A stretch of DNA of 56,887 bases from a virus (taxonomy: Duplodnaviria; Caudoviricetes), in the IMG/VR virus record IMGVR_UViG_3300011189_000401, positions 1 through 56,887 of that record. The stretch is one strand, 5' to 3'. The notes beneath the pieces were generated by a model. The model searched no databases, was not told where the DNA came from, and was given only the letters and a program-made list of their open reading frames with translations. The position numbers were made by a program, and so were the translations under genes. Shown here piece after piece: positions 189 to 55,645 of the stretch; the stretch's first letter is position 1, and each line of letters begins with the position of its first letter.

Positions 189-378
189 GTATTCTCCTTA
201 TGCGATTGGTCACGCCACGGATGTTAGAATATAACCAATAGAATTAACCGGGGTTAATACTGAATTGCCGATACCACCTACCTATTGATTAGGTGTGATT
301 ATTTGGGAGCTACCGCTCCTGATTCGGAAGACGGCGAGCAAACGATGGCGTTATGGATGAAATGCCAGAAATAATACT

Positions 379-675
379 TCATAGATCTCCTTTGAGTGTG
401 TGTGAGCGGTCGCACGCGTCGCGTATTAAGCTGTAGCACAGACCGTGCTCGCGCATAAATTCGTGGTCTTCGGCCTCGGTCCCCGGTCGCATCTCGCACA
501 GCACGGCGTGTGTCACCTCGTGCGCCAGATGGTCGCGCCACCGGATGGCGTCGGCGTCGACGTAGATCGTCTGGGTCCGGCAGTGTGTCCAGCTGCCGCC
601 GTCGGGTCGGAGGTTCCACCGGTTAACCCCGGTTAACCACACTTGCTGCTTCCGCAGCTCTTGCAGATATAACAA
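379..675 (-). CDS. small putative zincin-like (HEXXH) protein; start uncertain (possibly GTG at 640)
   Basis: HLAHEVTHAV motif plus downstream DHEF; ORF overlaps the RNR 3' end. Confidence 0.4.
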   Translation of the reverse strand: MLYLQELRKQQVWLTGVNRWNLRPDGGSWTHCRTQTIYVDADAIRWRDHLAHEVTHAVLCEMRPGTEAEDHEFMREHGLCYSLIRDACDRSHTLKGDL

Positions 676-3152
676 CCTTCCTCAAACACCACGTTTCCAT
701 CGCCACAGTCATCACAACTTGCATCAGCAGTAGTGCCGTCTCGGACAGCACCTTTGAGGAACATGCGAACGGCGCTAAGCGTCGTACCAATGTAGTCGCC
801 TTCGATGCCTTCCAAGGACTTGATGATACGCGGCAGACCGGCGTTGTGCCGGAGTGCCATTGAGATGATCTTGCCTAAACGGGCGTGATGCTCGTCATCC
901 TTGATGGCGTCAATCTGGTCGAAGACCAAGTCGGTGTCGACTCCTGCTTTGACCAGTAGTTTGCCCACCGATTTTACAGCCCGGTTCAGGGTGACCCACT
1001 CCTTGTCCCCCAGACGATTCGAGTGGACCCAGAATGCAACCGGGTAATCCTTCGTAGAGTCTTCTTTGAGGTAGGACAGCATCAGGTAATACTTGCCGCC
1101 CTCGCGCCTCACAATCTTCATGTCACCACTACTGAACTCATCCGGCAGGTGGACGTTCTTGGTGACCACGTCGTCATCATTGGTCTTCAAATATAGACCA
1201 TGCTCCTGAGCGACGTGTTCTTCCAGTATCTCCAGAAGGCTCTCATAGTCGTTCTCAGGCGTTTCGTCACCTGATACGAGCACACCGTCGCGTGAACCTT
1301 CAACGTACACTGTGACGCCTTTCAGCCCCTTCTCCCACGCTCTCAAGTAGAGTTCACCGACCACCTCCGGCTTCGTGCCTCGTGGTAAATTGATGGTACT
1401 ACTGATTGAATGGTCGATGTACTTCTGTTGGATGGCCTGAAGGTCCACTCGTGCGTTCCAGTCGATCTGGTCGCTGGTCACAAAGTAGTCAGGTAGCTCC
1501 TTGCTGCGAGCTTCTTCTTCTGACATACCGAACACAACCTGAAGGTACTCGAAGTAGTCTTCAACATTGTGGTGATAGACCTTGAAGTGCTCCCAACGGT
1601 CTCCCATCCCGTCAACGCTGTCTGGTGTCCCTTTGTCTTCGTCAGACATCTTGCGCTTCCGTGTGTACGAGTTCCTGAAGACAGGCTCGACGCCACTGGA
1701 AGTCTGCGACTCAATACTCACTGACCCTGTTGGGGCACAGGTGAGTAAGGAGACGTTCCGGCGTCCGACTCTTGACATGCGATTTCGCAAGTCCGCAGGC
1801 AGTCGCTGGATATAGGCGTTGTCCACTTCCTTCTGCCAGTCAAAGAGCGGGAACGCTCCCCGGACTTCGGCGAGGTTGATACTCTCTTCGTAGGCTGCGT
1901 TTCGGAAGACGCGGTAAATTTCTTTGACAGTGTCGAGTCCGTCGTCACCATCATAACGGCGACAAAGACGAGCCAAGCAATCAGCGAGGCCGTGAGTGCC
2001 AAGACCCGTACGTCTCCCTTGTTCGGCTGCATCATATAGCTTCTCCCAAAGCTCCTTTTCATCCGGCGTATCACACGCCTCTTCTCGGATCTTTTCCAGG
2101 GCTTCTAGCTCAAGGTCGACAAGGTCATCGTTCAGGCGCATGGCCTTACGGACGACCAGTGCAAACCGGTCGTAGTCAAACTTTGCGTGAGCGCAGAAAG
2201 GATCTTGAACGAAGTTCTTGAGATTGATCGAGATAAGACGGCAGGAGTCATACGGACTCAGCGGAATCTCGGAGCACGGGTTGGTACTGACGTGGTCCCA
2301 ATACTCCTGAGCCGGAAGCTCCCGCTCAATGTTGTCCCACATGATGAGACCGGGCTCCGCGTTCTCAGTCGCCTGCTTTACGATGAGTTCCCAGAGATCC
2401 CGCGCCTGAATACTCTTGACAACCTCGGGTTCCTCAGCATCCACCGGCCACTGAAGAGTGTAGGCATCATCGGCCTTCACAGCTTCCATGAAGTCATCAG
2501 TGATCTTGACGCTAACGTTGGCCCCGGTGACAGCCTTTTTGTCGGCCTTCATCTCGACGAAACTTGCCACGTCGGGGTGGTTCACGTCGAGCGTAATCAT
2601 CAGGGCACCACGTCGGCCATTCTGACCAACCATGCGGCACACATACGAGTAAAAGTCAGCGAACGACCATGCACCACTGGTGGTACCGGCACTGTTGCTG
2701 ACGCGTTGGCCCTCGGGCCTGAGCTTAGAAATGTCGATCCCTACGCCACACCTGCGTTTGAACAGGTTTGCGAGGTCGCGGCCACGTTCAACGATGGAAG
2801 ACATGTTGTCCTCCGGGCCGTCAATTACAACACAATTGCTAAGCGATACGTTCTTGTAGGGATTACCGACGCCGTACATCGGTGATCCCTGCGGAACAAC
2901 GCAATCAAAGTTATTGAAAAGGTTGAAGATTTGGGTCTCGTCCATCGCCCACTCGCCACCGTGTTTGTACTCGATGCGAGCGAACTCCTTGGCCATGCGC
3001 CGATGCATGTCCTCGGGCGTCCGTTCTACGAACTGACCCTTTTCGTTTCTAAGTGCGTACTTCGTAACAAATACATTGGTCGCTAGCTGGTCGCCGTCGA
3101 AGTATTCCTCCGTTGCTTCCCTTACTTCTTGTTCGGTATATGTCTCAGTCAT
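633..3152 (-). CDS. nrdJ: class II (adenosylcobalamin-dependent) ribonucleotide reductase
   Basis: SNC, GQNGRRGA, TNPCSE radical cysteine, APTGS, DHSISSTIN, C-terminal CxxC...CxxC...SKC; no beta subunit gene nearby. Confidence 0.92.
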   Translation of the reverse strand: MTETYTEQEVREATEEYFDGDQLATNVFVTKYALRNEKGQFVERTPEDMHRRMAKEFARIEYKHGGEWAMDETQIFNLFNNFDCVVPQGSPMYGVGNPYKNVSLSNCVVIDGPEDNMSSIVERGRDLANLFKRRCGVGIDISKLRPEGQRVSNSAGTTSGAWSFADFYSYVCRMVGQNGRRGALMITLDVNHPDVASFVEMKADKKAVTGANVSVKITDDFMEAVKADDAYTLQWPVDAEEPEVVKSIQARDLWELIVKQATENAEPGLIMWDNIERELPAQEYWDHVSTNPCSEIPLSPYDSCRLISINLKNFVQDPFCAHAKFDYDRFALVVRKAMRLNDDLVDLELEALEKIREEACDTPDEKELWEKLYDAAEQGRRTGLGTHGLADCLARLCRRYDGDDGLDTVKEIYRVFRNAAYEESINLAEVRGAFPLFDWQKEVDNAYIQRLPADLRNRMSRVGRRNVSLLTCAPTGSVSIESQTSSGVEPVFRNSYTRKRKMSDEDKGTPDSVDGMGDRWEHFKVYHHNVEDYFEYLQVVFGMSEEEARSKELPDYFVTSDQIDWNARVDLQAIQQKYIDHSISSTINLPRGTKPEVVGELYLRAWEKGLKGVTVYVEGSRDGVLVSGDETPENDYESLLEILEEHVAQEHGLYLKTNDDDVVTKNVHLPDEFSSGDMKIVRREGGKYYLMLSYLKEDSTKDYPVAFWVHSNRLGDKEWVTLNRAVKSVGKLLVKAGVDTDLVFDQIDAIKDDEHHARLGKIISMALRHNAGLPRIIKSLEGIEGDYIGTTLSAVRMFLKGAVRDGTTADASCDDCGDGNVVFEEGCYICKSCGSSKCG

Positions 3153-3376: not shown

Positions 3377-4233
3377 AATTCGTATATCCTCCGTGTGTCG
3401 GCGATCAATTCGCCGATTCTATTCTTTTGCTCCGGCTCCAGTACACGTCGGAAGGTGTAGACAGCCGCCTCAAAATCGTCTAGCGGCTTCCTCAGCGCTT
3501 CCTTGCACTGTTCCTCGACACCCCCACCAAGTGTCTCAAGATTGAGCGTAAAGTTCGGGCATAGCTGCTTGATGGCACACTGTAACCTGTACCAGCCTGT
3601 CAAGCCCCCGAATTTCATATCAAAGTTATGGAAGGGGTGAATACCCTCTCCCATTTCGCGATTGATGATATGAAGATTAGGACATGGAATCAGAAGTCGC
3701 GCCCCGACATCGAATGCATCGATCTTGTTCTTCAGCTGTTGTACGGGGTTTGTTCTAAATAGTTGGTCGACCATTTTACCTAGGTTAACTAGGACGTCGC
3801 GGCCAATGAACTGCGTGGTTTCGAGCACCGGAAGCTCCGTCTCAACGGTCAGCAATCCGATGTTCAGCATGAGCTTGTCTTCCGGTACCTTCTTACCGGC
3901 TGCGTGCTGGACCATGACCCCATAGAAGTGGTCAATCACCCTGAGTTGGTCGATGGTCAACTCTTCGTAGTCGTCGATAAGACGAACGCTCAGCGAGTTG
4001 CTCAGCGTCTCTTCCATTGATTCGAGATGTTCGGGCAGCGACATCCCACCGCCGTCGAACTCATCGGTCTCGATGAGCACATGGATGTCAGACCGCTTCT
4101 CCGGTATCTCACCATAAAAGATAACCTTCGGGTCGCTGTACTTCTCAACAGCGAGTTGACCCAGGTTAATTTCCCGGCGTCTTCTGGTATTGACCAACAT
4201 CTGGAATAGCTCTCTACGCAGTTCCTTTTCCAT
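3373..4233 (-). CDS. hypothetical protein
   Basis: 286-aa ORF in the operon; no motif recognised. Confidence 0.75.
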   Translation of the reverse strand: MEKELRRELFQMLVNTRRRREINLGQLAVEKYSDPKVIFYGEIPEKRSDIHVLIETDEFDGGGMSLPEHLESMEETLSNSLSVRLIDDYEELTIDQLRVIDHFYGVMVQHAAGKKVPEDKLMLNIGLLTVETELPVLETTQFIGRDVLVNLGKMVDQLFRTNPVQQLKNKIDAFDVGARLLIPCPNLHIINREMGEGIHPFHNFDMKFGGLTGWYRLQCAIKQLCPNFTLNLETLGGGVEEQCKEALRKPLDDFEAAVYTFRRVLEPEQKNRIGELIADTRRIYEL

Positions 4234-5924: not shown

Positions 5925-7837
5925 GCCGTCTCCTGAAACTGTCCTCGGAAATTCTTGTTTTCGTGGATGATCGACTCGCCATTCTCCTTGATAACGTGCA
6001 AGTTGGTATGGCCGTGAAAATAGTCGCTCATCGCCTTCTGGTGTCCGACGAAGATCAAGGTCTTGCCCTCGTTTTGTTCGAGGACAAACTCAAGGACGCG
6101 CTGGATGCCAGCGTCGTCCACTCCGTCAACGGCCTCATCGTCGATGATGAAACCGAGGTCCATCATGTTGTTCAGCGCTGTAGCAGCCGCCTTTGAAATC
6201 CTGGCTTTCTCTCCTTTCGAGAAGATGCCGTATGGGAAATACTTTCCCTTCTTGGACACGTTGGTGAAGACCAGTGATAACTCACTACCGTCCTCTCGGA
6301 GTTGACAGTGGTAGTCCCCATCTGTCATCGCATCGAGGCAGACGTTGATGTTCTCTTGAAGATTCAGGATGAACGAGTTGAACCGTGCCGCCTTCGTCTT
6401 CTTCATCGCGTCTTCGAGCGCATCACATGCGTCGATGTCCGTTCCGGCCTGTTCGATGGAATCCTTCAGGTCGTCGCGTACCCCCTGAGCCTCTGAGAGC
6501 GACGCACGCTTGTCCGTGAGGCTGGCCTGAATGTTGGCCGGTGTTTTCTTCTCCGTGCGCTCTACGCGGCTCATGAGAGCGCTGAGGCGCTTGTCGCAGT
6601 CCTTCACGAACTTCTCAGCCCGAACAAACTTGTCCAGCTTGTTCCCCAGCTTGGTGTACCGGGTAAGCTTGTCACGTCCGGCTTCCACCTCGGCCTCCAA
6701 TTCCTCAATCCTGTCGCTCAGGTCTGAAATCTTGGAGTCGAGCGTCGAGATGTCCACCTCGACATCAACCTTCTTGGCTTGATAGGCGTCCACCTTCTTT
6801 TGGTGCTGGTCGACCTTGGCCTCCAGCTTCTTGGAGTCACCAAGCAGGTTGCCGCAGACATCACACTCACCGGTTGGATTCGTGGTGAGGTTATCCAAGT
6901 TCTCCTTAGCCGACTGCATCGCGGCTTCAATCTTGGCCAGCTTATTCTGCTTACTGGTACGCCTCTTCTTCTGAGTGTCACGCTCCCGGCTCAACCGCTT
7001 CACAGCGGTACTCTTGTCTTCGAGCCCGCCGACCTCTTCCTCAAGCTCCCTGAGTTCCTTCTCAACACCCGGCTTCTTCTTTAGAAGCTCCGTGAACTCG
7101 TCTCGCTCATCTCGTTTGTCGGAGATGTCCGACTCAAGCTGTTCGATCTTCTCGGCCTTTTCTTCTTCAAAGGTTTCGAGTTGATTCTTGTAGTTCTGAA
7201 TGTCCTTCTTCGCGGACGCGATCATCTCGTCACGAGCTTGGAGAAGCTTCATGTCGGAACGCCGTTCTGACTCAAGGTCTCGGCGGCGACTACGCACTTC
7301 CTTAATCCACTTGTCATACCGAGCCGTGTTCAGGATCTCGGACACGACCTTGTTCAACTCGGTCGAAGTCAGTGCGACCAGTGGTTTCCGGTCACTGTCT
7401 GAGTAGGCGCAGTAGTACAACACGTCCTTACTCAGCCCCAGCTTCTCTTCGATGAGCTTCGTGGTTTCTCGCTTCGATGTTGCGTGTGTTCTGTCCTCTC
7501 CGTCCACGCTAAGGAAAACGTTGTTGCCTTCCTTGGGGTGGTTGCGAACACGCCGGACAACAACCTCTTGCCCGTCTACGTCAAAAGTCAATTTAACCTC
7601 GGTAAAGTCGTCGAACTCTCCGATGATATCGTCGCGACTCACGTCTTTGCGAAGGATATCCTCGAAGAGCGCCCAGACAAAGGCCGAACAGAACAGGCTC
7701 TTACCCGCTCCATTCGACCCCTGATTCTGCTCGTCCCGGTTGTCCCCGGTGACGAAGTAGACGCCTTGACCCAGGTTAAGTTCCACATCACTTAACAACA
7801 GGTAGTTGTGGATCTTAATCTGCGTCGGTCTAATCAC
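5921..7837 (-). CDS. SbcC/Rad50-like (gp46-like) recombination ATPase
   Basis: Walker A NGAGKS, long coiled coil with CDVC zinc hook, FSKGE signature, IIDDE Walker B, H-loop VGH. Confidence 0.92.
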   Translation of the reverse strand: MIRPTQIKIHNYLLLSDVELNLGQGVYFVTGDNRDEQNQGSNGAGKSLFCSAFVWALFEDILRKDVSRDDIIGEFDDFTEVKLTFDVDGQEVVVRRVRNHPKEGNNVFLSVDGEDRTHATSKRETTKLIEEKLGLSKDVLYYCAYSDSDRKPLVALTSTELNKVVSEILNTARYDKWIKEVRSRRRDLESERRSDMKLLQARDEMIASAKKDIQNYKNQLETFEEEKAEKIEQLESDISDKRDERDEFTELLKKKPGVEKELRELEEEVGGLEDKSTAVKRLSRERDTQKKRRTSKQNKLAKIEAAMQSAKENLDNLTTNPTGECDVCGNLLGDSKKLEAKVDQHQKKVDAYQAKKVDVEVDISTLDSKISDLSDRIEELEAEVEAGRDKLTRYTKLGNKLDKFVRAEKFVKDCDKRLSALMSRVERTEKKTPANIQASLTDKRASLSEAQGVRDDLKDSIEQAGTDIDACDALEDAMKKTKAARFNSFILNLQENINVCLDAMTDGDYHCQLREDGSELSLVFTNVSKKGKYFPYGIFSKGEKARISKAAATALNNMMDLGFIIDDEAVDGVDDAGIQRVLEFVLEQNEGKTLIFVGHQKAMSDYFHGHTNLHVIKENGESIIHENKNFRGQFQETA

Positions 7838-9700: not shown

Positions 9701-10780
9701 CTAATCACGATTGACTTCCTCAAAAATCTCGACTGCTCTCTTCTGGACCTTGCTGCCAACCTTCGCTCCGACCATCTGGGCTCGGATGAGGTCAACGTCC
9801 TTCTGTCCGTTCTCTTCAATGACATCGACCCGTACTTCCTTATCAGAACTGGATTCACGGGACAGTGGAGCAGTCAAACGATAGAAATGTTCCTTGTAGC
9901 CCTCAACCTCGATACGCTGGTCAGCCGTGGCTTCGCCCGTCACTTTCATGACGGTCTGGCTCATGGCTTCGTCAGTCCAATCGGTGCTGAGAAAGTCGTC
10001 TACGTCCATTTTCCTAATGTTGTACTGAACCGGGTTGTCAAGCGTGTTAAGCTCGTACCCGTCTTCAGTAATCACTAGCTCAGTTGCACTACGTTTGTAA
10101 TGCTCACCGAACTTCAGGTCGAAGGGCGCACCAACGTAATGCGCGTCCTCGTGAACTTCTTGTGCCCGGTGGAAGTCCCCTCCCAGACACAGGTCGAAGT
10201 TGGACGTTATTTCTTGACCTAGGTTAACTCCGCTGGGCGACGGCATGCCGTTGTCCAGCATCGCGTTCTTGGTCGGAAAGTGAAACAGCATGACGTTGTA
10301 CTGAGAGCTATCAGCAATTCGCTCATTGGTCTCAGCAATCTGCCGTTCCAACTCATCGTAGTCTGAGATGTACGGGAAGCAGTGGAAGTCCACGCCTCCA
10401 TGTCTTACCATCCGCTGATTCAGGACAACGTTGACGTTGTCCCCGTGTACCAGTTTGTCCGCTGCGCCAAGCACAGTGAACACGTTCCCTTTGTCGAGAA
10501 CGCAGTGGTTCCCCTCGATGAGCAAGGAGAATTTATCAGTCGCGGCGATACATTTGATCAAGTCGTTACTGTACGTCTGTACAATGGGGTCAAGTGTTGC
10601 TGCGTCGGTCCAATCACCGAGAAACAGCAACCCGTCGTAATCTTCTGTCCTCACCTTCTTGCACAGCCATTGAACAAAGTTGGACTGCGCGACAAGGAGG
10701 TGTGAGACTCCCTGTTTGTTGAGGTAGAACTTCGGGTTGCTGTTCGTCAGGTGAAGGTCGCTAAACACGAGATACTTCAT
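9701..10780 (-). CDS. SbcD/Mre11-like (gp47-like) metallophosphoesterase nuclease
   Basis: SDLH, LGD, GNH, GDFH, YVGAP motifs; partner SbcC-like gene nearby. Confidence 0.9.
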   Translation of the reverse strand: MKYLVFSDLHLTNSNPKFYLNKQGVSHLLVAQSNFVQWLCKKVRTEDYDGLLFLGDWTDAATLDPIVQTYSNDLIKCIAATDKFSLLIEGNHCVLDKGNVFTVLGAADKLVHGDNVNVVLNQRMVRHGGVDFHCFPYISDYDELERQIAETNERIADSSQYNVMLFHFPTKNAMLDNGMPSPSGVNLGQEITSNFDLCLGGDFHRAQEVHEDAHYVGAPFDLKFGEHYKRSATELVITEDGYELNTLDNPVQYNIRKMDVDDFLSTDWTDEAMSQTVMKVTGEATADQRIEVEGYKEHFYRLTAPLSRESSSDKEVRVDVIEENGQKDVDLIRAQMVGAKVGSKVQKRAVEIFEEVNRD

Positions 10781-11982: not shown

Positions 11983-12028
11983 TTTGTCTCCTGTACTTCT
12001 TAACCGGGGTTAACCGGGGGTCACCTGC

Positions 12029-18308: not shown

Positions 18309-18317
18309 TAACCTCGG

Positions 18318-22980: not shown

Positions 22981-22993
22981 CCGTTAACCTCGG

Positions 22994-28641: not shown

Positions 28642-28661
28642 AACTTCTCCATTAACCTGGG

Positions 28662-38842: not shown

Positions 38843-38865
38843 TTATCCTCCTTAACCCAGGTTAA

Positions 38866-41900: not shown

Positions 41901-44900
41901 CCGACGTAGGTGTCAAGGGCCTTCTCAGCCTCTTTGACCTCACCTGCGTCAAGGTAACGGGAGAGCTGCCCTTGCGAGCGGTCCAGCTTGAACTGGCGCA
42001 GCTCCCTCAGCCGGTCGTTGACCTTCTCCTGCTCCCTTCTGTACTCTCGGGCTCGATTGGCAACTGTCGCCATCGCGCCATCGAGTTGACCCAGGTTAAC
42101 TCGTCCGCTCCTGACTCCAGCCACGAAGTCATTGACTGCACCCTCGGCATCACCCATCGTCGAAACGATGTCTCTACCAAGTGACTCTGACATCTGACCA
42201 ATAACCCCCATCCTATCGAAGTCCAGGGAGTCGGTCAGGGTGTCATTGATTACGTCTGCGAGTTCATCTGCTTGGCCACCGAGGTGTTCAGACAGCTTCT
42301 CATAGAGATCGATCCGGTTGTCAACGTGTTCGTTGATCTCCTTCTCAGTCTCCTTAGTCTCTTCAGCCAATTTGTTGAATTCCTCCCATACCTTCAGCAC
42401 TTGGTTGTCCAACCGGATCATCTCCGACTGATACTGAGCCATGCTGATACGGTGTTCTTCAGACTTCGCTGTCAACTGCTCTTGACGCAAGACCCTCATC
42501 TTCTCGATGTGGTTGATCTTACGGGCCCAGCCAAGAACCTTGTACTGGACGCCAGCGTGCTTGACCTGTGGATTGAGGATCTTCTCAGTGAGTTCAAGGT
42601 TCTCGAACAACATCTCGTTCTCTTCGCGCACAGCACTGAGTGCCTTGTAGCGAAGCGCGATCAGATCGTTCTGAAGCCCCTTAATCTCCTGAAGCCCTTC
42701 TATGCTAAGGAGGTATTCACTCGCCCTCATGTCGCCATGCGGGCCATTCTTGACGACCTCGTTGAGATCGTCCTGCTTAGCGATAAGCTTCTCGGTCGCC
42801 TTCAATTCTTCGAGGCGAGCGTCCACTGTTTCGTCAAGCTGCCTTGCTTCCTCGGTTACAAGCGACAGGTTTCCTTTCAGATTCCTGTTGGTGATACCGA
42901 TCTGAGTGTTCTTCTCCTGAATAGCATTGATCCCGGCTTGGATCTGGAGAAAGATATTCTTGGCAACCTCGTACTCGTCGGCGGAAAGTTCCGCGTTCTT
43001 TCTGCGGATTTCAAGAAGCTCGAAGCCAGCCTCTAGGGACTTGTCGAACTCTTCCATCGCAAAGTCTGTAGAGTCAGGCGAGAAGTCGAAATTGAGGTCA
43101 TCGATCTTCTTCTGCAAGTCTTCGTTTCCGAGACCTATATCACCGCGAAGCAGTTGCTCCTGTCTCAACTCTTCCCATTTCATATACTGCTTAGCAAGAG
43201 AGTTGAGGGTCTTCTGACGCTTCGCAGCATCATCCATCAGGTCGATGTATTCCCTGAAAATATCATTTCGCCTTTGGTCCAGCATCGTGGTGATCTGGTC
43301 GTTCTGAATCGCATTACGAAGATCCTTGACCTGATCTGCCGTATCACTGACGCCCTGCCCTGCCTTGCTTGCGGCCTCAGAAAATATCTCCGTAAACTCC
43401 CCTAGGCCCTGCATATTGACATTAAACAGACCGGAGTTCTTAGCCATTCTCCCCATGTCGTCAGCTATGTCAGCCGCGTTGTCGGAAGAATCAATCAAGT
43501 TGGCTGAAACGCCTTGTGTAACCTCGACAAGCTCAGAAGCGACAGCTTCGTCGCTCATGTCCTCGACTGCACTCCTGCTGTCTTGGAACGGCTTCATGGC
43601 TTCTTTCAGGATAGGCGTCTTGACGTTCGCCTCCCTGATTCCACGAAGGATCGCACGCTGTGTATTGATCCCCAGCGCCTTCGCTTGATCCCCCATCGTC
43701 TTCTGCAACGCTGGAACATCCATGAGCATCGTGGCCTCGGAATGGATGTCAGCCGAGTCCATAGTAATGAAGTCCCCAAGAACTTTCTCCGTGTCCTTGA
43801 TATCTTCTTTTAGTTCGTTCAACTCATGGCGAATCCTCATGAAGTTCTTCATGGGGACAGGGGCATCCATGATGTCGAACAGCTTGTTGAGCAACGCAGA
43901 TGTTTCACGAACAGGGTCAACTTCGAGCGTCTTCATGACATTGAAGTTGACACCCTCCATCGTCTCAGCAATGCGCAGGATGTTTTCGTGGACTTCCTTG
44001 ACATTGAAGAGCAACCCGTCAACTCCTTCGACGGTGGCCATCTCTTCCACGTTGAAGTACAGCGCGTCTTCAAGCTCTTTTCTAGCTCTTACGACCTCAG
44101 CCGCAGTCTTGCCGCCAACATTATTTAGCAGGCCATTAAGGCGCGCGCTGTACTCTTCCTCCATACCTCTTGCGAGGTCATCGAGCAGACCATCATTCAA
44201 CAATTTCTGAATCTGCTTGCCATGAGTCTTCCATTCCTTGTTGGCCTTATCGCTGACAAGGTTACCAGACGCAGTGATACGCAGATCTCCGACCTTCTTG
44301 ATGTTATCGAGGCTCATCTTCAGCACCTCGATTTTGTCCTGCACATCTTCTATAGGTCGGTCATCCCAGATGTCAGCCCACTCAGCAGCGAAGCTATTCG
44401 CCGCTTCGGACAGCGTGAAGAAAACACTGCTAATCACCCCTTCCTGAGCTTTGAATGCCGAACGCTGCTTACCAAACTGGCGGTCTAACATCTGAGCAGA
44501 TAGACTGATCAGCTTGTCGTTGCTCTCTAGGATGTCACTGTTGATGTTGTTTACTCGCTTGCCTACCTCAACCCGGACCTGCTCATAAATCCTGGGCAAT
44601 TCATTGACAAGGTCTTCATCCGACATCGTCAGAACTTCGTTCTCCATCGAGAGTTCAGCACCGGAATTCTTGAACAGGTCTCTCACTTTATCAGCGGCGA
44701 CACTGGTCTCAGTGCTGAACAACCTCACCTCATCATTGATACTGCCAAGATCCTTCCTGAATTTCTCAAGCTCGTTAGTCTTGGTTGTCATCTTGGCGAT
44801 AGATGCAGCCGTCTCATCAAAGGACTCTTGCATGTCCTCAATTGAGTCGACCATATAGCCAATCGCAGCCACAAGCCCAATCATAGCGACTGCGATGAGC

Positions 44901-47900
44901 CCAACAGCTCCCGCAGACAAGCCCTTGCTAGCAACAGCGGCTCCACCAGTTCTTGAGGCTGCGGCCCTAGCACTGGCTAACTCACTCTCACTCGCGGCAG
45001 CGATTCTAGCCGCCTGAGCTTCTGATAGGTGAGCCTTGGCGTGCCTTTCGGTGACCGCAGCGGATACAAGCAGTGAGTCAATATTAGCGTTTACCGACCT
45101 CTCATGAGTGAAGAGAGCGGCAGTGGAGGTGATGACTGAGCTAACAGCATTCTTCATGGACGTGAACAGAGTTCCGAACACCATGATTAGTGCGCCGATA
45201 CCCTGTGTTAATACGATAGCAGCGCCTCCCCATACAACGAAGTTGGAAATGAGCTTATCCAGCCCAAGCATATCCATCGCCTCTTGGAACTGTTGCAAGG
45301 CATGAGTAATAGAGATCAAGGCTTCTTTAGCAGGATCTAGCCCGTTTCTCATGAACTCAAGCAAAACCTGCTTTGCAGACTCAAACTTTCTTGCAAGCGT
45401 TTCTTTGACGTTCTCAGAAAGGTTCCTGCTTAGACCAGCGGAATCGTCCCTGAGTTCAGTGATAGTGGATTTCACATCGTCTACGTTGCCAGCCAAGACC
45501 TCGAAAGCCTTAGCACCACGCAGTCCGAACAATGAGAAGCTTGCGTTCAAGTCCCTAAGCGTCGTCTCTCCACTTCTCAGCTTCTTGTTGACCTCTTCCA
45601 AGACCGCGAGAAACTGCTTGTCGAGACTCATGTTGGGATCAACTTCAACGTCAAGAGCCTCTTTGAACTGACCAGTCTTAGCAGCGAACTGTGCGAACAC
45701 GCGCTGCAAGGTACGACCAGCCTGACCGCTCTTGATCATGTTGTCGTTCAGGACGGCGAGAAACGCCGAAAGTTCCTCAAACTGGAAGCCTGCAACTTTA
45801 CCAGTTGCGGCAACAAATTTGAGACCCTGAGTCATCTCATCAAGCTCCGCCTGATGGTTCCGGTAGACGGAGGTAAGAACGTCGGAGATACGATTCATCT
45901 TCTGGAGCTTCGATGTCGCGTTGTCCATCGAATCGCCGAAGACGTTGTACATACCAGCCATCGACCGAGTCGTGGCTTCAGCGTCTGCCGACGTGGTTGT
46001 GATGAGTCGCATAGCAGCGTCGAGACCGGCCATTGACTCTTCGAGAGTCAGACCAGCTGAGCCGAACTGTTTGACGACCTCGGCAACTTCCTCAGTTGCC
46101 TCACCGAACTCAATTGCGGTCTCACGAACCCGCGTCTTAACCTCGGTTAACATTTCCTCGAAGTCCTTCGAGGCAGATCGAGCAACAGTCATCACACGAG
46201 CGTATGCGCGACTCTCTTCAAGGATCTCCATGAAACCCATCGACAGACCCATGAGGCCAGCCATGATGAGGGACATAGAGTTGATGAACTTAAAGTTGTT
46301 GCGCACAGAATCAGCAAGCTCCATGCGGTAGAGGCGGAACCCCTTACCGGCGCGCTTGGCCGACTTCTCTACTTTATCAAGGGCGTAACGAGACTTGTCT
46401 ACTCTAGCACCCATCTTACTGAATGCCTTGTTGAGCCTGAGAGCTTGCCTTAGCAGCTTGCTCTCTACCTTGGTCAAATCCTTGCCCTCTCTTTTCATCT
46501 GACGGAAGGTATGGACAACGTAGGCCGTCTTGTCACGCATCTCTTTTGCGTTGCCACCCAGCTTTTTCATCTTCTGGGCACCAACGAGGGCAGCATTGCC
46601 GCCTTGGTCGATAGCCTTGTCGGCCATGTTCATCTCACGGCGCATGCGCGTGATCTGATTCGAGAATTTCGTAATGTCAGATTCAGCATTCTCGAAATCC
46701 TTACCCATAGCGCGAATACTGCCGCGCTTCATGCTAGCTTGCCCGCCAAGCCCACCCACTAGTTGTTTCCTAGCGTTGCGAACTCTCTTTAGTGCGACCT
46801 CTGCCTTGCGGCCAGCTTCAGTAGAGCTTCCACCCATGCGGATGAACTCTTGTTCAAGCTCTTCGATGCTATTCGACAGGCGCTTATAGTCCTTGTCGAT
46901 GTCCTTGGCCGAACGCGCAGCACGCTTGTAGGCACCTGCGGTGTCTATTGTCGCTTCGCCAAGGATCTTCTGGCGAGCGATGAGTTCCTTGGTTTTATTC
47001 TCTACTTTCTTGAGCTTGTCAGAAGCCTTAGCCATCTCGTCGAAGGCGTTGGCTTTCTTTTCAAGGGCGTTCACAGCGCCACCTTTCGACAGCGTGTGCT
47101 CAAGGCCCTTCGCCTCACGGCGGGTGTGCTGGATCTGCTGATCGATCGACTTGTACAGCGACTCGATCATCTCCAGCTTGCGAGCCTCTTTTCCAGACTC
47201 GTCCAGACCCGCGAAGTTGCCGCCGCCGCTAGCTGCTTCAGCTTCGATGGCGCGCTTCCCAATGATCTTTTCTTTCTGGAGCCGAGCAATAGTCGACTGA
47301 GTCTTTTTGAGATCCGACTGGAACCTCTTGATGAGGTCACGGGACTCCAAAAGGGTAGCCTTGTCGAAGATCCCCTCTCGGGTGCGCTTCTGAAGCGCCT
47401 CAAGGGCTTCCTCATTTGTGTCAATCGAGAGATGGAGCTTCTGGTAGTCTCGACGACCTTTCTGAAGCTCGTTGTAGTACGTCTTCAACACGTCACGGTT
47501 TGCCCTGTACTGTTGCTTCTGCTTGTTCAGGGTGGCCAGCGATCGCTCAAGGCTGTGCTCATCCTTCTTGTTCACCTTGATCGACTTCTCGACTTCCTTG
47601 CGACGCTTGTCGATTGCCTTGATCTCAGTCTTGATGGCAGCAATGCGCTTCATGCCCTCTCTGTTGGGCTTGATATTCTGCGCCTGAACCTCCAACTGGT
47701 CGCGACTATTCTTGAGTTGCTTAGACTCATTTTTGAGAGCCCGGACTTGGTCGCGAATCTCGTTGATACCAGACGCAACCCGAGTTCCAGTACGCTCGAT
47801 CGATTTACCAAATGCCTCCATTGAGTGGAGGTCTTGGTTCTTCATCGCCTTGGCTAGTTCTCTACCAGCCTTGGCACTGGTATCACCCAGCTCTTGGAGC

Positions 47901-49180
47901 AAGCCCCTAGCGCGCTTGTCAACACTGATTTGACGCTCGGTGTTCTCGGTCCTCAACTCGATACGCTTAGCCAGTAGCTCGGTAAGCTCAGCGGTCTTGC
48001 GAAGTTCCTGTTGCTGCTTCTTTTCAGGACTGCTTTTCAAATCTCCTTCGAGATCTTGCTTGACCTTCTCCAAGTCCTTGTAGGTTCCGGGATTCTTTTT
48101 GACAACATTTCGCTTCTTCCCGATCTCACTTTGTGCATCCTTGAATGCGCCACCGGGAGCGACCTGCTGCATTGCTCTCTTTTCCAGAGCCAGGATCTTC
48201 TTTAGCTCCTGACGACGACGCTCTAGGGATTTAACCACCTTGTCAGATTGGTTTTTGACGCGCTTCTCTTCCTTGGCAAGATGCTCAACAGCAATGCGTT
48301 GCTTCTTGAGTTCTGAATCTTTCTCAACAGTAGAGTTTTTAATAGCAGCCTTGCGCATCTCTTCATAGCCTTCCTTGGCCTGCTTTAACTCCTTCTGGAT
48401 GTGGTCAAGGCTGTTGCTTTTAATCTCCTTGTTAACCTTGGTTAATTGCTTCTCAGTCTTGCTAACACTGCTGCTGAGATTATCCCAGGTCTTAGTCCAC
48501 TGTCTCGCCTCATTGAATGCAGACTTGTTGGACCGCATTTCCATCTCAACTTCTTCAAGCTCAGCCTCGGTCTTTTTGATAGCCGCGTTGACCTTGCGAA
48601 GCTCAGTGACACCGACGTCACCAACTTCTTTAAGCTGCTTCTGAATCTTCTGGAGGTGAGCAAGAGATCCGCGCTCGATTCCCTTGGTCGAGAACCCTTC
48701 CATGCCGTCAGCGTTCTTGCGGACACCATCGGCGTCGAGATCAGGAGACCCCTTGCCACCACCAGCGCCGCCGCCACTCTTGGACGCCTTGCTGAACTTC
48801 TTACCGGCCTGAGTTGCGTCCTGCTCAAACTGTTGACCGAGCCCCTTCATCCGTTTTTCCATCTTATCAAGCGCCTCTTGAAAGGCACCTACTAAGACGT
48901 TCTCGATCTGTTTGCCGTCGTCTTGGAGCTTCAACTTGACGTTCGAGTTCGCAGCCAAGGTCTTCGACAGACGGTCGATGGCTTGATTGAACATGCCGAT
49001 CAACTTCCTGAACGATTCGAGGCTACTCTTGTCGAACTTGATGTCACCGTCGAAGTCAACCGACTTCAACGCCTTGTCCACTTGGTCAACAACTTTGCCC
49101 AGCTTCTCGGCAACCTTGTTGATGCCCTGTACTTCCTTTACAACTACTTCAACGCCAATCTTGATATTGCTGTTTGCCAT
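38903..49180 (-). CDS. tail tape measure protein
   Basis: 3425 aa helical/coiled coil; TP901-type core (ETAIEFG...ELSAFLAVLNDNMIKSGQAGRTL), hydrophobic segments, C-terminal FHEGG/EGVL motifs; follows the chaperone genes. Confidence 0.92.
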   Translation of the reverse strand: MANSNIKIGVEVVVKEVQGINKVAEKLGKVVDQVDKALKSVDFDGDIKFDKSSLESFRKLIGMFNQAIDRLSKTLAANSNVKLKLQDDGKQIENVLVGAFQEALDKMEKRMKGLGQQFEQDATQAGKKFSKASKSGGGAGGGKGSPDLDADGVRKNADGMEGFSTKGIERGSLAHLQKIQKQLKEVGDVGVTELRKVNAAIKKTEAELEEVEMEMRSNKSAFNEARQWTKTWDNLSSSVSKTEKQLTKVNKEIKSNSLDHIQKELKQAKEGYEEMRKAAIKNSTVEKDSELKKQRIAVEHLAKEEKRVKNQSDKVVKSLERRRQELKKILALEKRAMQQVAPGGAFKDAQSEIGKKRNVVKKNPGTYKDLEKVKQDLEGDLKSSPEKKQQQELRKTAELTELLAKRIELRTENTERQISVDKRARGLLQELGDTSAKAGRELAKAMKNQDLHSMEAFGKSIERTGTRVASGINEIRDQVRALKNESKQLKNSRDQLEVQAQNIKPNREGMKRIAAIKTEIKAIDKRRKEVEKSIKVNKKDEHSLERSLATLNKQKQQYRANRDVLKTYYNELQKGRRDYQKLHLSIDTNEEALEALQKRTREGIFDKATLLESRDLIKRFQSDLKKTQSTIARLQKEKIIGKRAIEAEAASGGGNFAGLDESGKEARKLEMIESLYKSIDQQIQHTRREAKGLEHTLSKGGAVNALEKKANAFDEMAKASDKLKKVENKTKELIARQKILGEATIDTAGAYKRAARSAKDIDKDYKRLSNSIEELEQEFIRMGGSSTEAGRKAEVALKRVRNARKQLVGGLGGQASMKRGSIRAMGKDFENAESDITKFSNQITRMRREMNMADKAIDQGGNAALVGAQKMKKLGGNAKEMRDKTAYVVHTFRQMKREGKDLTKVESKLLRQALRLNKAFSKMGARVDKSRYALDKVEKSAKRAGKGFRLYRMELADSVRNNFKFINSMSLIMAGLMGLSMGFMEILEESRAYARVMTVARSASKDFEEMLTEVKTRVRETAIEFGEATEEVAEVVKQFGSAGLTLEESMAGLDAAMRLITTTSADAEATTRSMAGMYNVFGDSMDNATSKLQKMNRISDVLTSVYRNHQAELDEMTQGLKFVAATGKVAGFQFEELSAFLAVLNDNMIKSGQAGRTLQRVFAQFAAKTGQFKEALDVEVDPNMSLDKQFLAVLEEVNKKLRSGETTLRDLNASFSLFGLRGAKAFEVLAGNVDDVKSTITELRDDSAGLSRNLSENVKETLARKFESAKQVLLEFMRNGLDPAKEALISITHALQQFQEAMDMLGLDKLISNFVVWGGAAIVLTQGIGALIMVFGTLFTSMKNAVSSVITSTAALFTHERSVNANIDSLLVSAAVTERHAKAHLSEAQAARIAAASESELASARAAASRTGGAAVASKGLSAGAVGLIAVAMIGLVAAIGYMVDSIEDMQESFDETAASIAKMTTKTNELEKFRKDLGSINDEVRLFSTETSVAADKVRDLFKNSGAELSMENEVLTMSDEDLVNELPRIYEQVRVEVGKRVNNINSDILESNDKLISLSAQMLDRQFGKQRSAFKAQEGVISSVFFTLSEAANSFAAEWADIWDDRPIEDVQDKIEVLKMSLDNIKKVGDLRITASGNLVSDKANKEWKTHGKQIQKLLNDGLLDDLARGMEEEYSARLNGLLNNVGGKTAAEVVRARKELEDALYFNVEEMATVEGVDGLLFNVKEVHENILRIAETMEGVNFNVMKTLEVDPVRETSALLNKLFDIMDAPVPMKNFMRIRHELNELKEDIKDTEKVLGDFITMDSADIHSEATMLMDVPALQKTMGDQAKALGINTQRAILRGIREANVKTPILKEAMKPFQDSRSAVEDMSDEAVASELVEVTQGVSANLIDSSDNAADIADDMGRMAKNSGLFNVNMQGLGEFTEIFSEAASKAGQGVSDTADQVKDLRNAIQNDQITTMLDQRRNDIFREYIDLMDDAAKRQKTLNSLAKQYMKWEELRQEQLLRGDIGLGNEDLQKKIDDLNFDFSPDSTDFAMEEFDKSLEAGFELLEIRRKNAELSADEYEVAKNIFLQIQAGINAIQEKNTQIGITNRNLKGNLSLVTEEARQLDETVDARLEELKATEKLIAKQDDLNEVVKNGPHGDMRASEYLLSIEGLQEIKGLQNDLIALRYKALSAVREENEMLFENLELTEKILNPQVKHAGVQYKVLGWARKINHIEKMRVLRQEQLTAKSEEHRISMAQYQSEMIRLDNQVLKVWEEFNKLAEETKETEKEINEHVDNRIDLYEKLSEHLGGQADELADVINDTLTDSLDFDRMGVIGQMSESLGRDIVSTMGDAEGAVNDFVAGVRSGRVNLGQLDGAMATVANRAREYRREQEKVNDRLRELRQFKLDRSQGQLSRYLDAGEVKEAEKALDTYVGTAQKLYKDSPTALTGSLEWATKAAERLAELQVSTSKKKYKMVFDDEGLQAIKMLLDVIDDKVKEIGDRQLSFLPDGITDPKKFAQEIRKNLEGEGMDIFRNAEGRASVRNDHLSNIDSNIQRIANEVTSRDGRAMAGMTEASKASKEVSGTGESAKALEKNLDDMGATSEKASKAMKEVEKTTKSLSDVAKTTKPQDVDRELTDKVRGIEADAAKAVIGWQMGVAAMEAGRGKALQDRGSDVIDNSFVWQSLQEGMEMFTKNAGETLSSFFDSVFVPEFAKANAEVYEQYIEQLENIRVQYKRNVSTAIDGLQRNESTYYSYLNSIMDAEKQRQQSILDAQKQYRESLKKTKDVIKEQFGEAFKQVFNAKAVSSIMGQFTQGLFGAPDLETSLNQFAGALDVASDRLIEAGTDFLKGKLTEMGMDLSESASRTFDELRPELKKSLTDMFSDDVEGDIGLKMAKEQMTKGFLDSLPDEAFIQNEFALRTYEILDSATSVFGSAFAAAASSMAGMLTTGISRIVEMTLSGDADRMRVFYLKFIEELPRAIEEFTNEFSENFETMIEAISDNLPEIVDSFIEAFPEVISGIITALEDSLPKIVETLAGALPRIVEQVFPLIIDFFLLIIEQVPTILGSITGVIPTLIAQLLAKLPEIIIVVIKAVFESIIDIIVGLFSNGPAGGIVTIALAMAGMMYAWEGATESAISSEATKAELLNFQRVNLQMERDNAIEMRSTLEQIQAQQTGQVASSAKNASQTIDEAKKGTRRAAQGAEQGARASEGAMQAAVSAVGIAMAGINLIQAMASDAPTGEKVGSVIGTIVGGVGGALVGGLQGGSIGAGLGGMLGRGIGGIFHEGGMIGGNEEEQLILAQKGEGVLSRSGMRALGGRGALDALNSGKLDFAKLQELQGVPVYHDGGVVGDKSATSSYDPKSVTRSGGTNNEYVDNSTYTVNMKVEGGSSGNRREDKKYAREMATEIDKQLAKMKEDRKSRLAKSMKDD

Positions 49181-50970: not shown

Positions 50971-50994
50971 ACCCAAATTAACCGAGGTTAAGGC

Positions 50995-51024
50995 AAAAAA
51001 CCCCGCAGGGGTTACCCTGCGGGG
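50995..51024 (-). terminator. rho-independent terminator after the tail tube gene
   Basis: CCCCGCAGGG-TAAC-CCCTGCGGGG followed by TTTTTT. Confidence 0.88.
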
Positions 51025-51047
51025 TTAATCCGGGTCAAAGACTCAGA

Positions 51048-54310: not shown

Positions 54311-55179
54311 TATTGAGTACCAGGGTTGAGTTTGCCGAAGATATCTTCAGTCTGCGCATCACGCTCAGTGTCGGCATTTTCAGCCATCGGAGCGAGGCCC
54401 GGACCCTCACCTTCGACACCCATCTGATCAATGAATTTGGGAAACGCCGCAGCCTCTGGTGGCGCATATCCTTCGGTCTCGATGTATGCCTTGACGTACT
54501 TTTCAGCGCGCTGTTTCCAACGAGCCGCATACGATCTCTTATCGGTGCTCGTTTCTTCTTTGTAGATAGAAGCGAACGTATCTGTGTATAGGTAGTACGC
54601 TGCTAGGTAGGTCGTCGCCACCGCGATAGCAGGTGGCACCGGTCTGGCCGGGTCCGTAGCCGTTGGGTCAAAGTGTCTGACCTCTCCATCCTCATAGTCG
54701 TCAACGGTCGAGGCTGACAACATCGTGTCAACCTGTACCTCGGCGTCTTCAATGTACTTCTCAGCTGCTTCATCTGAGATATGAGGGTCGAACTGAACCT
54801 TGACTTCATCTCCTGCTTCGATGGTCCCGAACCAGCAAGTTGAGGGCAAGGTGATAAGACCGTCTGGCGTCACGTAATCAGATGCGATACTCGCGCCCTG
54901 CGTAAGCAGGAATTCCTGATTAATGTTGTCGACAATCTTGTATGCATTGAACTCGGTAGGACTGGTGAACTTGATGACCAGTCTGAATTTCTTGTCAAAC
55001 GATGGGTCGAACTGGATAGCCTCAAAGTCGAACCCGAAGTCGGGATTGCCGGGTTGCCCTGGAGTGCTACTAGCAGCTTTCAGGTTGACGTTCACGATTG
55101 AGTCGGAAAACCGAATCACCTCGTTGTCACTGGCCTTCAAGATGCGTCTTACTTCGCTCAGCGTGGTATAGGTTGCCAC
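54310..55179 (-). CDS. putative head-tail adaptor
   Basis: YTTLSEVR at the N-terminus; YIEDAEVQVDTML...VPPAIAVATTYLAAYYLY; GTG start with AAGGAGG. Confidence 0.65.
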   Translation of the reverse strand: MATYTTLSEVRRILKASDNEVIRFSDSIVNVNLKAASSTPGQPGNPDFGFDFEAIQFDPSFDKKFRLVIKFTSPTEFNAYKIVDNINQEFLLTQGASIASDYVTPDGLITLPSTCWFGTIEAGDEVKVQFDPHISDEAAEKYIEDAEVQVDTMLSASTVDDYEDGEVRHFDPTATDPARPVPPAIAVATTYLAAYYLYTDTFASIYKEETSTDKRSYAARWKQRAEKYVKAYIETEGYAPPEAAAFPKFIDQMGVEGEGPGLAPMAENADTERDAQTEDIFGKLNPGTQ

Positions 55180-55198
55180 GAATCCTCCTTAACCCCGG

Positions 55199-55645
55199 TT
55201 AATCTTGACTCCTTCCTTCTGCCCACTTCCAGAAAAAGAACGACGCTGCCGTAAAGCCTGCGCCCATGACAAAAGTCACGTCAGGATTCTCATACCACTC
55301 TTCGACGGGCTCAGGCTTACGCTTGAACATCTCGTGTGCAAACTCGATCTCATCTCCTTGTCGGACTATGGTATCGGCCTGTATGTCAACGATGCCGTTC
55401 AGGATGAGCGCCTTCTTCTCAAGCGCTTCGTTTTCCTCAACGACCAGTGGGTACTTCCTGTATCTCTTCTGTAGTTCCTTGGACTTCTCCAACGTGGTGT
55501 AGAAGTAGACCTCGTCATCAATGATGATATGGTTCTTTCCACCTTCATCTTCTGGGATGAACTTACACTCCTGTGCCGCCCCCTGAACGGAGGCGAGGAC
55601 GCACAGGGCGATGGCGATGCTAGAAACCAAGTGCTTCCCACGCAT
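55199..55645 (-). CDS. secreted/membrane protein, possible spanin component
   Basis: Likely start MRGKHL at 55645 (AAGGAG RBS); signal peptide, coiled coil, C-terminal hydrophobic segment. Confidence 0.55.
   Translation of the reverse strand: MRGKHLVSSIAIALCVLASVQGAAQECKFIPEDEGGKNHIIIDDEVYFYTTLEKSKELQKRYRKYPLVVEENEALEKKALILNGIVDIQADTIVRQGDEIEFAHEMFKRKPEPVEEWYENPDVTFVMGAGFTAASFFFWKWAEGRSQD

Follow-up and report, generated by a model that had tools for sequence, protein, structure and literature searches.

An evenly spaced array of 14-bp palindromes in the genome of an uncultured siphovirus as candidate binding sites for a dimeric protein

The viral record IMGVR_UViG_3300011189_000401 (Duplodnaviria; Caudoviricetes) is a linear sequence of 56,887 bases, and this entire record is referred to below as the window. 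It derives from an uncultured siphovirus, and all of its credible genes are located on the minus strand. Following the direction of transcription, genes for a tail tube protein (Phage_tube_2), a 3425-residue tape measure protein (assigned with PHROGs) and tail proteins of 1611, 1782 and 1224 residues precede those for a ResIII/DEAD helicase, a 128-residue open reading frame (ORF), a DnaC/IstB-like ATPase, a DnaB-like helicase, a 213-residue DNA methyltransferase (20081-20722; PHROG 799, E=1.8e-35) and a primase. These are followed by a guanylate-kinase fusion, the DNA polymerase III alpha gene, a 375-residue ORF judged by eye only to encode a gp32-like single-stranded DNA-binding protein (SSB) on the basis of its zinc motif and acidic tail, a UvsX-like recombinase, SbcD-like, SbcC-like and RuvC-like genes and a gene for ribonucleotide reductase (RNR). 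Dispersed among and within these genes are numerous copies of a 14-bp palindrome, TTAACCNNGGTTAA, which are the subject of this report and which we tentatively consider to be binding sites for a dimeric protein.

Thirteen perfect copies of TTAACCNNGGTTAA are present between positions 244 and 55202, and not one is found in any of 100 dinucleotide-preserving shuffles of the window (mean 0.00). When a single mismatch is permitted, the count rises to 24 (13 perfect copies plus 11), compared with a mean of 0.03 and a maximum of 1 in the shuffled sequences. The composition-based expectation for a perfect palindrome of the 6-N2-6 type is 0.002 copies, which is the figure that an initial annotation of this DNA had estimated roughly, and the excess of sites is roughly 7000-fold. 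The same annotation had counted at least 13 perfect and 11 one-mismatch copies, never more than about 4.2 kb apart, and both statements agree with our exact tallies, given that the largest gap is 4211 b. No copy of the pattern is present in the window when it is reversed without complementing, and no conserved sequence is evident in the flanks of the sites. Nine of the 24 sites are intergenic or located on a gene edge, and the other 15 are inside genes. The sites therefore occur both between and within genes, and they are found in structural and replication modules alike, as had been proposed.

The array also extends beyond the window. CheckV estimates the completeness of the record at 41%, which corresponds to a genome of ~140 kb. 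A near-identical contig (G001) adds 8,839 b that carry the genes for the small and large terminase (TerL) subunits, the portal and the major head proteins; in its 52,245 b we counted 20 perfect or one-mismatch sites, and five of these are outside the window. A search of metagenome contigs with a TerL profile yielded a further locus (L181; TerL 99% identical) that adds another 8,590 b upstream, including leftward-transcribed PhoH-PIN and ThyX genes, small ORFs, a tRNA-His gene and a transfer-messenger RNA (tmRNA) gene. Three more perfect sites are present in this leftward-transcribed region upstream of the terminase genes, and thus the sites accompany both directions of transcription. Joining the window to G001 gives a composite of 65.7 kb, and adding L181 gives one of 74,316 b, or about half of the genome, which holds 32 sites, 17 of them perfect.

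The spacing of the sites proved, on testing, to be more even than random placement would produce. Within the window the mean gap is 2,389 b with a coefficient of variation (CV) of 0.48 (p=0.00025), and the maximum gap gives p=0.0009. The 32 sites of the 74.3-kb composite have a mean gap of 2,346 b and a CV of 0.46, and 0 of 50,000 random placements were as even. A junction-aware null, wherein 12 sites were placed on random gene junctions and 20 at random coding positions, also gave 0 of 50,000 placements as even, with a mean CV of 0.97. Similar regularity is seen in a related virus (G006, described below), whose 27 sites have a mean gap of 2,547 b and a CV of 0.52 (p=0.0002). Evenness is not significant in two short related records, G003 and G004 (CV 0.96 and 0.69). 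In the head module, sites fall on successive gene junctions that are 1.6-1.9 kb apart, the space of the 10.3-kb tape measure gene is filled by three in-gene sites, and three close doublets (173-381 b apart) are located near the RNR end.

A further characteristic of the array is the manner in which its sites accommodate the genetic code. The perfect 14-mer contains TAA in two of its three frames. All nine sites that are non-coding or on a gene edge are perfect, and five of these provide the TAA stop codon of the upstream gene. Each of the four perfect in-gene sites is read in the sole open frame, where it encodes Leu-Thr-x-Val-Lys/Asn. The variants ending in GGTCAA or GGTAAA occur, in eight cases of eight, in the frame in which GGTTAA would introduce a stop, and they encode Asn-Leu/Arg-Gly-Gln/Lys. 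Because these variants are confined to the stop-creating frame, the mismatches represent the closest sequence that the reading frame permits. Frame-0 sites make use of TTA, which is the rarest leucine codon of this phage (55 of 1,620, or 3.4%).

The array of G006 follows the same logic. All eight of its frame-1 sites end in CTAAA or CTTCA and all seven of its frame-2 sites begin with TTTAG or TGAAG, such that the mismatch is always in the TTAA half that would give an in-frame TAA, and three of its four frame-0 in-gene sites are perfect. Codon-preserving shuffles, which could have explained the in-gene copies as a by-product of protein coding, did not match the observed numbers. Over one thousand shuffles of the 65.7-kb composite, perfect or one-mismatch sites within genes averaged 0.33 and never exceeded 3, versus 17 observed, and the corresponding values for G006 are a mean of 2.27 and a maximum of 9, versus 18 observed. 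The stop-codon-avoiding variants are a clean signature of selection on a DNA word that overrides protein coding. Selection acts on the DNA, rather than on protein or RNA, and it shapes the protein sequence. Among contigs from four sequencing runs that cover positions 36001-56000, none of the 40 listed variants falls within the seven sites of that interval, although only ~0.3 would be expected (from ~61 variants per 20 kb), and this comparison has no power.

Related viral contigs were collected with the TerL profile and then scanned de novo for palindromes. The exact TTAACCNNGGTTAA motif is absent from these TerL-related contigs. Instead, some relatives carry TGAACYNNRGTTCA or TTAAGYTARCTTAA at the same density and with the same kind of stop-avoiding variants, and thus a search for the motif among related phages recovers its architecture with different half-sites. 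The G003 contig (26 kb), whose TerL is 59% identical to that of the window phage, has eight perfect copies of TGAAC-N4-GTTCA versus 0.023 expected, and 12 copies when a single mismatch is allowed; the G004 contig overlaps it and belongs to the same phage. In the 67-kb G006 sequence (TerL 43% identical), the palindrome is TTAAG-N4-CTTAA, with nine perfect copies versus 0.11 expected, and the count reaches 27 when a single mismatch is allowed. A weaker case is a 16.5-kb locus (L128) with four one-mismatch sites and no perfect copy of TTAATC-NN-GATTAA. The shared design is a 14-bp site of the 5-N4-5 type with an outer T[T/G]AA, wherein the half-site is TTAACC in the window phage, TGAACY in G003 and G004 and TTAAGY in G006. 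All variants begin with a stop codon (the TAA of TTAA, or TGA) that often serves as the stop of the upstream gene. When the junction sites of the window phage were compared by hand with G006, four of the eight that are comparable have a counterpart at the orthologous junction of G006, which is not clearly above chance and is given no weight here.

No dispersed palindrome was found in the more distant, collinear G005 (103 kb) and G007 (177 kb, complete, with terminal repeats), or in the loci L126, L131, L186 and L194. These two larger genomes do carry clustered direct repeats. In G005, a 12-mer occurs 10 times, with many copies 77-78 b apart, and a 10-mer occurs 11 times, within 50993-52070 and 52624-53747. 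G007 has 17 copies of a 10-mer, distributed over three loci (52824-53139, 114084-114425 and 149928-150263), one of which immediately precedes the terminase module. Such clusters are likely to be promoter, operator or origin arrays.

Related words also appear in viral contigs that are unrelated to this phage. The sequence TTAACYNNRGTTAA is present in G008 (28.7 kb), in G009 and G010 (31 kb, complete) and in G011 (13.8 kb); G008 has 11 such sites on gene junctions in its first 14 kb, and G009 and G010 each have three that are clustered upstream of small paralogous genes. The half-site thus recurs as a phage regulatory word, and no protein other than RNR was found to be common to these contigs and the clade examined here. 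The exact 14-mer is also located within a 76-b unit of a complete viral contig of 37,140 b (G002), where the unit is repeated at 7 and 83 and, in a one-mismatch form, at 151. This unit recurs at the other end of the contig in a terminal repeat, and the contig is unrelated to the window phage by context.

The individual sites of the window are listed in Table 1. Beyond the window, one site is located ~430 b upstream of the small terminase gene, in a divergent intergenic region, where it adjoins three phased T6 tracts. These tracts (L181:8493-8530) are phased 10-bp repeats of a T6GGAC-like sequence that lie on the downstream side of the perfect site at 8441, ~40 b away, and resemble a bent-DNA element, and two independent contigs of the phage begin ~60 b beyond them. 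Sites 244 and 623 flank a small unit consisting of a 98-residue ORF (379-675, minus strand) with an HExxH motif, possibly a small metalloprotease, for which no Pfam match was found. A 106-residue, arginine-rich ORF (pI 11.9; listed as 299-619) in another frame between the same sites looks spurious.

Table 1. Copies of the 14-bp palindrome in the window, and an intrinsic terminator adjoining one of them
Position	Match	Location	Remarks
244..257	perfect	intergenic	first half also serves as -35 hexamer in a candidate sigma-70-like promoter (TTAACC, 18 nt, TATATT), minus strand
623..636	perfect	end of RNR gene (633-3152, minus)	its TAA is the stop codon of the gene
3775..3788	one mismatch, coding strand TTAACCTAGGTAAA	286-residue ORF, frame 1	mismatch abolishes in-frame TAA
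4156..4169	one mismatch, coding strand ...GGTCAA	286-residue ORF, frame 1	stop-avoiding
7593..7606	one mismatch, coding strand TTTACC...	SbcC-like gene, frame 0	
7766..7779	one mismatch, ...GGTCAA	SbcC-like gene, frame 1	stop-avoiding
10214..10227	one mismatch, ...GGTCAA	SbcD-like phosphoesterase gene, frame 1	stop-avoiding
12000..12013	perfect	intergenic	between the 375-residue ORF (gp32-like SSB by eye) and the UvsX-like gene
13711..13724	one mismatch, ...GGTCAA	189-residue ORF, frame 1	stop-avoiding
15220..15233	one mismatch, TTTACC...	DNA polymerase III alpha gene, frame 0	
18308..18321	perfect	gene junction	covers stop of 117-residue ORF and start of guanylate-kinase fusion gene
20970..20983	one mismatch, ...GGTAAA	DnaB-like helicase gene, frame 1	stop-avoiding
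22984..22997	perfect	end of 128-residue ORF, upstream of DnaC/IstB-like loader	its TAA is the stop codon of the ORF; G006 has a site at the same junction
24851..24864	one mismatch, TTAATC...	ResIII/DEAD helicase gene, codons 3-7, frame 0	
28652..28665	perfect	end of 1782-residue tail protein gene	its TAA is the stop codon of the gene; next start 10 nt on
32164..32177	perfect	1782-residue gene, frame 0	L-T-E-V-K
34692..34705	perfect	1611-residue gene, frame 0	L-T-P-V-N
38039..38052	one mismatch, ...GGTCAA	1611-residue gene, frame 1	stop-avoiding
38852..38865	perfect	intergenic	after tape measure gene and a hairpin; GGAGG and start codon directly next
42086..42099	one mismatch, ...GGTCAA	tape measure gene, frame 1	stop-avoiding
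46137..46150	perfect	tape measure gene, frame 0	L-T-E-V-K
48432..48445	perfect	tape measure gene, frame 0	L-T-K-V-N
50978..50991	perfect	intergenic, after tail tube gene	follows the sole convincing intrinsic terminator by 8 nt
55189..55202	perfect	end of 169-residue ORF	its TAA is the stop codon of the ORF; GGAGG and GTG start directly next
50999..51026 (terminator)		minus strand	12-bp stem with 9 GC pairs, T run; context of site 50978, not part of the repeat

The symmetry of the sites wherever sequence is free to vary, the selection that shapes the proteins they overlap, the even spacing in two lineages and the differing half-sites of relatives together indicate a dimer that binds double-stranded DNA. 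The interpretation that we favour, with somewhat less than even confidence, is that the 14-mers serve as binding sites for a lineage-specific homodimeric protein that would function as a genome-wide roadblock, silencer or coat. The sites would be high-affinity targets in double-stranded DNA for a sequence-specific homodimer, which is most likely to be encoded by the phage and restricted to its lineage. Selection would keep neighbouring sites no more than ~4 kb apart (2.3-2.4 kb on average) across the whole phage genome, and the bound protein would act genome-wide and in a distance-dependent manner, rather than as a promoter-proximal operator. This mode of action could be likened to that of mycobacteriophage stoperators or of KorB/Noc-type site arrays. 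The presence of one architecture with different half-sites among relatives fits a phage-encoded protein that co-evolves with its sites. The initial annotation had likewise proposed that a dimeric protein binds the phage genome every few kb. The underlying features of that proposal stand, given that the sites are real, two-fold symmetric, selected as DNA and regular; that a protein dimer binds them and that the phage encodes it are inferences from these features. None of the roles that were offered for such a protein (silencing, organisation, protection, self-marking, ejection or packaging) is singled out, and sequence cannot separate the roadblock, organiser and self-marking readings from each other.

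Several observations weigh against this interpretation. One is that the proposed protein did not emerge from our searches. Among the ORFs of the 74.3-kb composite and of the upstream region of G004, scans with Pfam or PHROGs (PHROGs alone for the four giant tail proteins and for several ORFs of the head module) revealed no family of the helix-turn-helix (HTH), repressor, ParB or similar type. ParB_N (PF02195) and HTH_3 were each recovered from 0 of 5 records when all six frames were searched, with records that are 12-48% complete and control genomes that scored. The earlier remark that no obvious cognate binder is identifiable in the window can therefore be extended to about half of the genome and to the sequenced parts of the relatives. 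Nor was an integrase or repressor found in the scanned ORFs, and nothing points to lysogeny. A TerL profile search of bacterial genomes yielded 57 relatives, mostly in Myxococcota assemblies, all with at most 35% identity, and identified neither a host nor a prophage. Because no integrase or repressor was seen and these bacterial relatives are all distant, an immunity role like that of stoperators is unsupported. Furthermore, the sites are palindromic and unoriented, whereas stoperators are asymmetric and oriented, and only one of the 24 window sites (site 244, by its -35 element) overlaps a plausible sigma-70 promoter. Since the collinear G005 and G007 lack a dispersed palindrome, the system is not essential to the clade. 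In the TerL tree, the window phage and G003 are sisters (99/99) and the other motif-bearing lineages belong to an unresolved group together with motif-less ones, such that the tree neither joins the motif-bearing lineages into one clade nor separates them.

A few genes nevertheless deserve mention in relation to the binder. Four genes are common to this phage and G006 and were not found in G007, namely the 128-residue ORF beside the helicase loader, the SSB-like ORF, UvsX and a 121-residue ORF that is KH-like by eye, in a contrast that depends on one complete genome and on BLAST thresholds. The 128-residue family has few relatives (five were found), and its lead in a protein atlas is weak (Phg_2220_C, with 136 shared features, under the guide value of 170). 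Pentatricopeptide entries returned for this family came without a matched stretch and were set aside as not meaningful, and sequence searches of the PDB with three candidate proteins gave nothing usable.

Other functions for the array must also be considered. A role at the level of RNA or of initiation, for example in transcript processing, as a hairpin that couples translation, or as the promoter or activator element of every operon, is suggested by the five non-coding sites that supply an upstream stop, by several that directly precede a ribosome-binding site, by the one that follows a terminator and by the one that overlaps a promoter-like -35. However, the sites fold into marginal hairpins (mean -1.6 kcal/mol, with 8 of 29 unfolded), and the stop-avoiding variants disrupt the pairing without compensation. 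These weak folds and the 15 in-gene locations also differ from the stable, GC-rich, extragenic stems of intrinsic terminators or repetitive extragenic palindromic (REP)-like hairpins. The window has no excess of sigma-70-like promoters or intrinsic terminators, and start codons that follow a site may overlap it or lie up to 135 nt away, and thus the sites do not behave as promoters, terminators or translation signals. They lack the fixed position and asymmetry expected for promoters of sigma-70 or of a phage polymerase, and no phage RNA polymerase family turned up in the scanned ORFs. A promoter-like sequence upstream of the small terminase gene has no site. We consequently give a function in RNA or initiation very little credence. 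The same low standing applies to the idea that the palindrome is the target of a phage-encoded DNA-modifying or nicking enzyme, either a methyltransferase or a nickase of the kind implied by T5-type nicked genomes. Palindromes are typical enzyme targets, and the window does encode a methyltransferase, but BLAST found no homologue of it in G006, which has the same kind of array. This idea also does not account for the excess or the evenness of the sites, and a nickase that cut the palindrome on both strands would leave the genome in pieces. Only marginally less improbable, in our judgement, is that a global regulator of the host binds the sites and is hijacked or titrated by the phage, with motif differences reflecting different hosts. 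The recurrence of TTAACYNNRGTTAA at junctions or in small clusters of the unrelated contigs G008-G011 is in keeping with this view, which would not account for even spacing or for costly in-gene sites. Phages that collect CtrA boxes of their hosts offer a precedent. As described in the consulted passages of one account (PMC9437464), these boxes in phages of Alphaproteobacteria have the form TTAA-N7-TTAA, are mostly intergenic and cluster in one gap region or in terminal repeats. TTAA dyads are enriched in both cases; the sites reported here have an N6 spacer, require an inner CC/GG and are evenly dispersed, and hence they are not CtrA boxes.

Two further explanations overlap with the one we favour, and both appear unlikely to us, although not to the extent of the preceding three. 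In one, the sites load a protein that spreads, slides or bridges in the manner of ParB, KorB, Noc, SlmA or MatP, and thereby compacts, tethers or covers the genome. In ParB-family and nucleoid-occlusion arrays (KorB on RK2, Noc, SlmA, matS), dimers bind 12-16-bp palindromes that are scattered across a replicon, even within genes, and their action reaches beyond the bound site. The 14-bp palindromes in genes resemble these arrays, a spacing of at most 4.2 kb would suit a limited spreading range, and the close doublets could allow looping. The differences are a far higher density here and an apparently virulent phage as the replicon, and neither partition genes nor ParB_N were seen in the sequence searched, which is incomplete. 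This organiser is inseparable from a roadblock or coat by sequence alone. In the other explanation, the palindrome is a self-marking signal by which the replication, recombination, nuclease or packaging machinery of the phage would protect, restart or recognise its own DNA. It could do so through Chi-like or roadblock protection from exonucleases, periodic loading of a helicase or primosome, or recognition by terminase. In their density of one per 2.3-2.5 kb, their evenness and their tolerance within genes, the sites resemble Chi and similar signals that span a genome. Motifs that differ among relatives would allow each phage to discriminate between self and non-self, and this phage encodes DnaB, a primase, a loader of the DnaC type, proteins that resemble UvsX, SbcCD and RuvC, and enzymes of nucleotide salvage. 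The gene-content contrast with G007 noted above, with its restricted basis, is also compatible with self-marking. On the other hand, Chi, KOPS and primase sites are short and asymmetric, with Chi also being oriented, and thus the 14-bp palindrome is not a Chi-like motif; in addition, no site is present in the putative small terminase gene.

The initial annotation had called the array an unrecognised DNA-site system, which is too strong a statement, given that dispersed palindromes have been described in Cluster O mycobacteriophages. As reported there (PMC4351075), Corndog and its relatives carry a 17-bp palindrome, 5'-TGTTCGGNNNCCGAACA, whose two arms are perfect inverted repeats around an unconstrained centre. 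The 34 copies of Corndog are spread through the genome: 14 are intergenic, 10 are near the 5' ends of genes and 10 are in the middle of genes or toward their 3' ends. Most are away from promoters, and a dimeric protein was suggested, with the function left unexplained. The likeness includes the invariant inverted arms, the free spacer, the tens of copies, and the mixture of intergenic and in-gene sites that are mostly away from promoters. The Cluster O site differs in its sequence and in its 7-N3-7 design, compared with 6-N2-6 here, and the phages and hosts are unrelated. Even spacing, stop-avoiding variants and half-site switching are not reported in the passages of PMC4351075 that were compared.

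Stoperators are the other close precedent, with the Cluster O palindromes being the closest in print. In Cluster A mycobacteriophages such as L5 and Bxb1, the consulted parts of two reports (PMC6550527, PMC9283540) describe up to ~30 sites per genome at which the bound repressor terminates elongation, with a motif that varies among subclusters and co-varies with the repressor. Stoperators are bound by monomers, are asymmetric and oriented with transcription, and belong to temperate phages with an immunity repressor, according to the same parts of these reports. Our array is similar in having many copies of one site in coding and non-coding DNA (24 in the window and 32 in 74.3 kb) and a motif that differs between relatives. 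It differs in its palindromic sites, and no repressor, HTH protein or integrase was found in the scanned ORFs of about half of the genome.

Operators of lambdoid phages (P22 c2, 434) are two-fold symmetric sites of 14-18 bp and of the 5-N4-5 type that cluster at two control regions. The core of the P22 operator resembles the TTAAG-N4-CTTAA of G006, which would fit a helix-turn-helix dimer; the sites here are dispersed, and HTH_3 was not found in the five incomplete records searched. A resemblance was also considered to sites of LexA (GAAC-N4-GTTC in Gram-positive bacteria, compare the G003 variant), CRP/FNR and PrfA, to the dehalobox and to the hix/gix cores of invertases, none of which enters our argument. 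No paper was found with the motif string as query. Searches of the literature on evenly spaced or over-represented phage palindromes recovered no account of the clade or the motif, with the supplementary tables of PMC6550527 and PMC9437464 being outside of this search.

The phage that carries the array has no close cultured relative. A megablast search with 20 kb of the window gave no match among phage records, and a TerL tblastn search of 50,697 phage records gave a best match of 27.6% identity; the same type of search with DnaE recovered only distant cultured phages (at most 31% identical). Queries with RNR found no overlapping contig, and a scan for the motif plus a ribosome-binding site gave only contigs of the same phage and chance matches. 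Sequencing runs with near-identical DNA are labelled as lake water or salt lake metagenomes, and no RNA run was listed among them.

Some additional features of these genomes merit description. The tape measure proteins have 3425 residues in the window phage (38903-49180, minus strand), 4302 in G006 (15282-28190) and 3492 in G007 (139431-149909). Using the usual rule of ~0.15 nm of tail length per tape measure residue, tails of ~0.5-0.65 micrometres are predicted. The 3425-residue ORF was also considered as an N4-type virion RNA polymerase, an assignment that was dropped given the PHROGs match to a tape measure protein. A full-length tmRNA gene (L181:359-766, minus strand; Rfam RF00023, 137.6 bits, also found by ARAGORN) adjoins the tRNA-His gene (971-1043, minus strand), and in this phage ~9 kb separate the pair from the large terminase gene, which is located downstream; tmRNA genes are unusual in phages. 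The gene at 17337-18308 (minus strand) encodes a DUF4406/DUF7768 domain, which is nucleoside deoxyribosyltransferase-like, fused to guanylate kinase, and it hints at an unusual nucleotide metabolism. A low-complexity segment at 50196-50246, within a 218-residue ORF, attracts foreign contigs, and the depth spike (up to 68) and loose ends seen there are a repeat artefact.

As a speculative and rather unlikely extension of these ideas, the array could be a genome 'bar code' of very long-tailed lake siphoviruses, wherein a lineage-specific 14-bp palindrome at intervals of at most 4 kb marks the DNA of its owner. A reader protein would then distinguish this DNA from that of the host or of co-infecting relatives, with possible consequences for nuclease protection, packaging choice or mutual exclusion, and the switching of half-sites among TTAACC, TGAACY and TTAAGY would define incompatibility groups.

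The feature is real, strongly non-random and selected, it belongs to a known but unexplained kind, and the phage clade in which it occurs is new. What is new here is the evener-than-chance spacing in two independent lineages, the stop-avoiding variants and the existence of relatives that are natural specificity variants of one design, which should point to the co-varying binder when their genomes are complete. If the sites prove to be operators or roadblocks, then the logic of stoperators would hold for symmetric sites as well, and for phages that are large and apparently virulent. If they instead mark self DNA or load a genome-wide coat, then they would add a new layer to the genome biology of phages, in an abundant, uncultured group of lake viruses.

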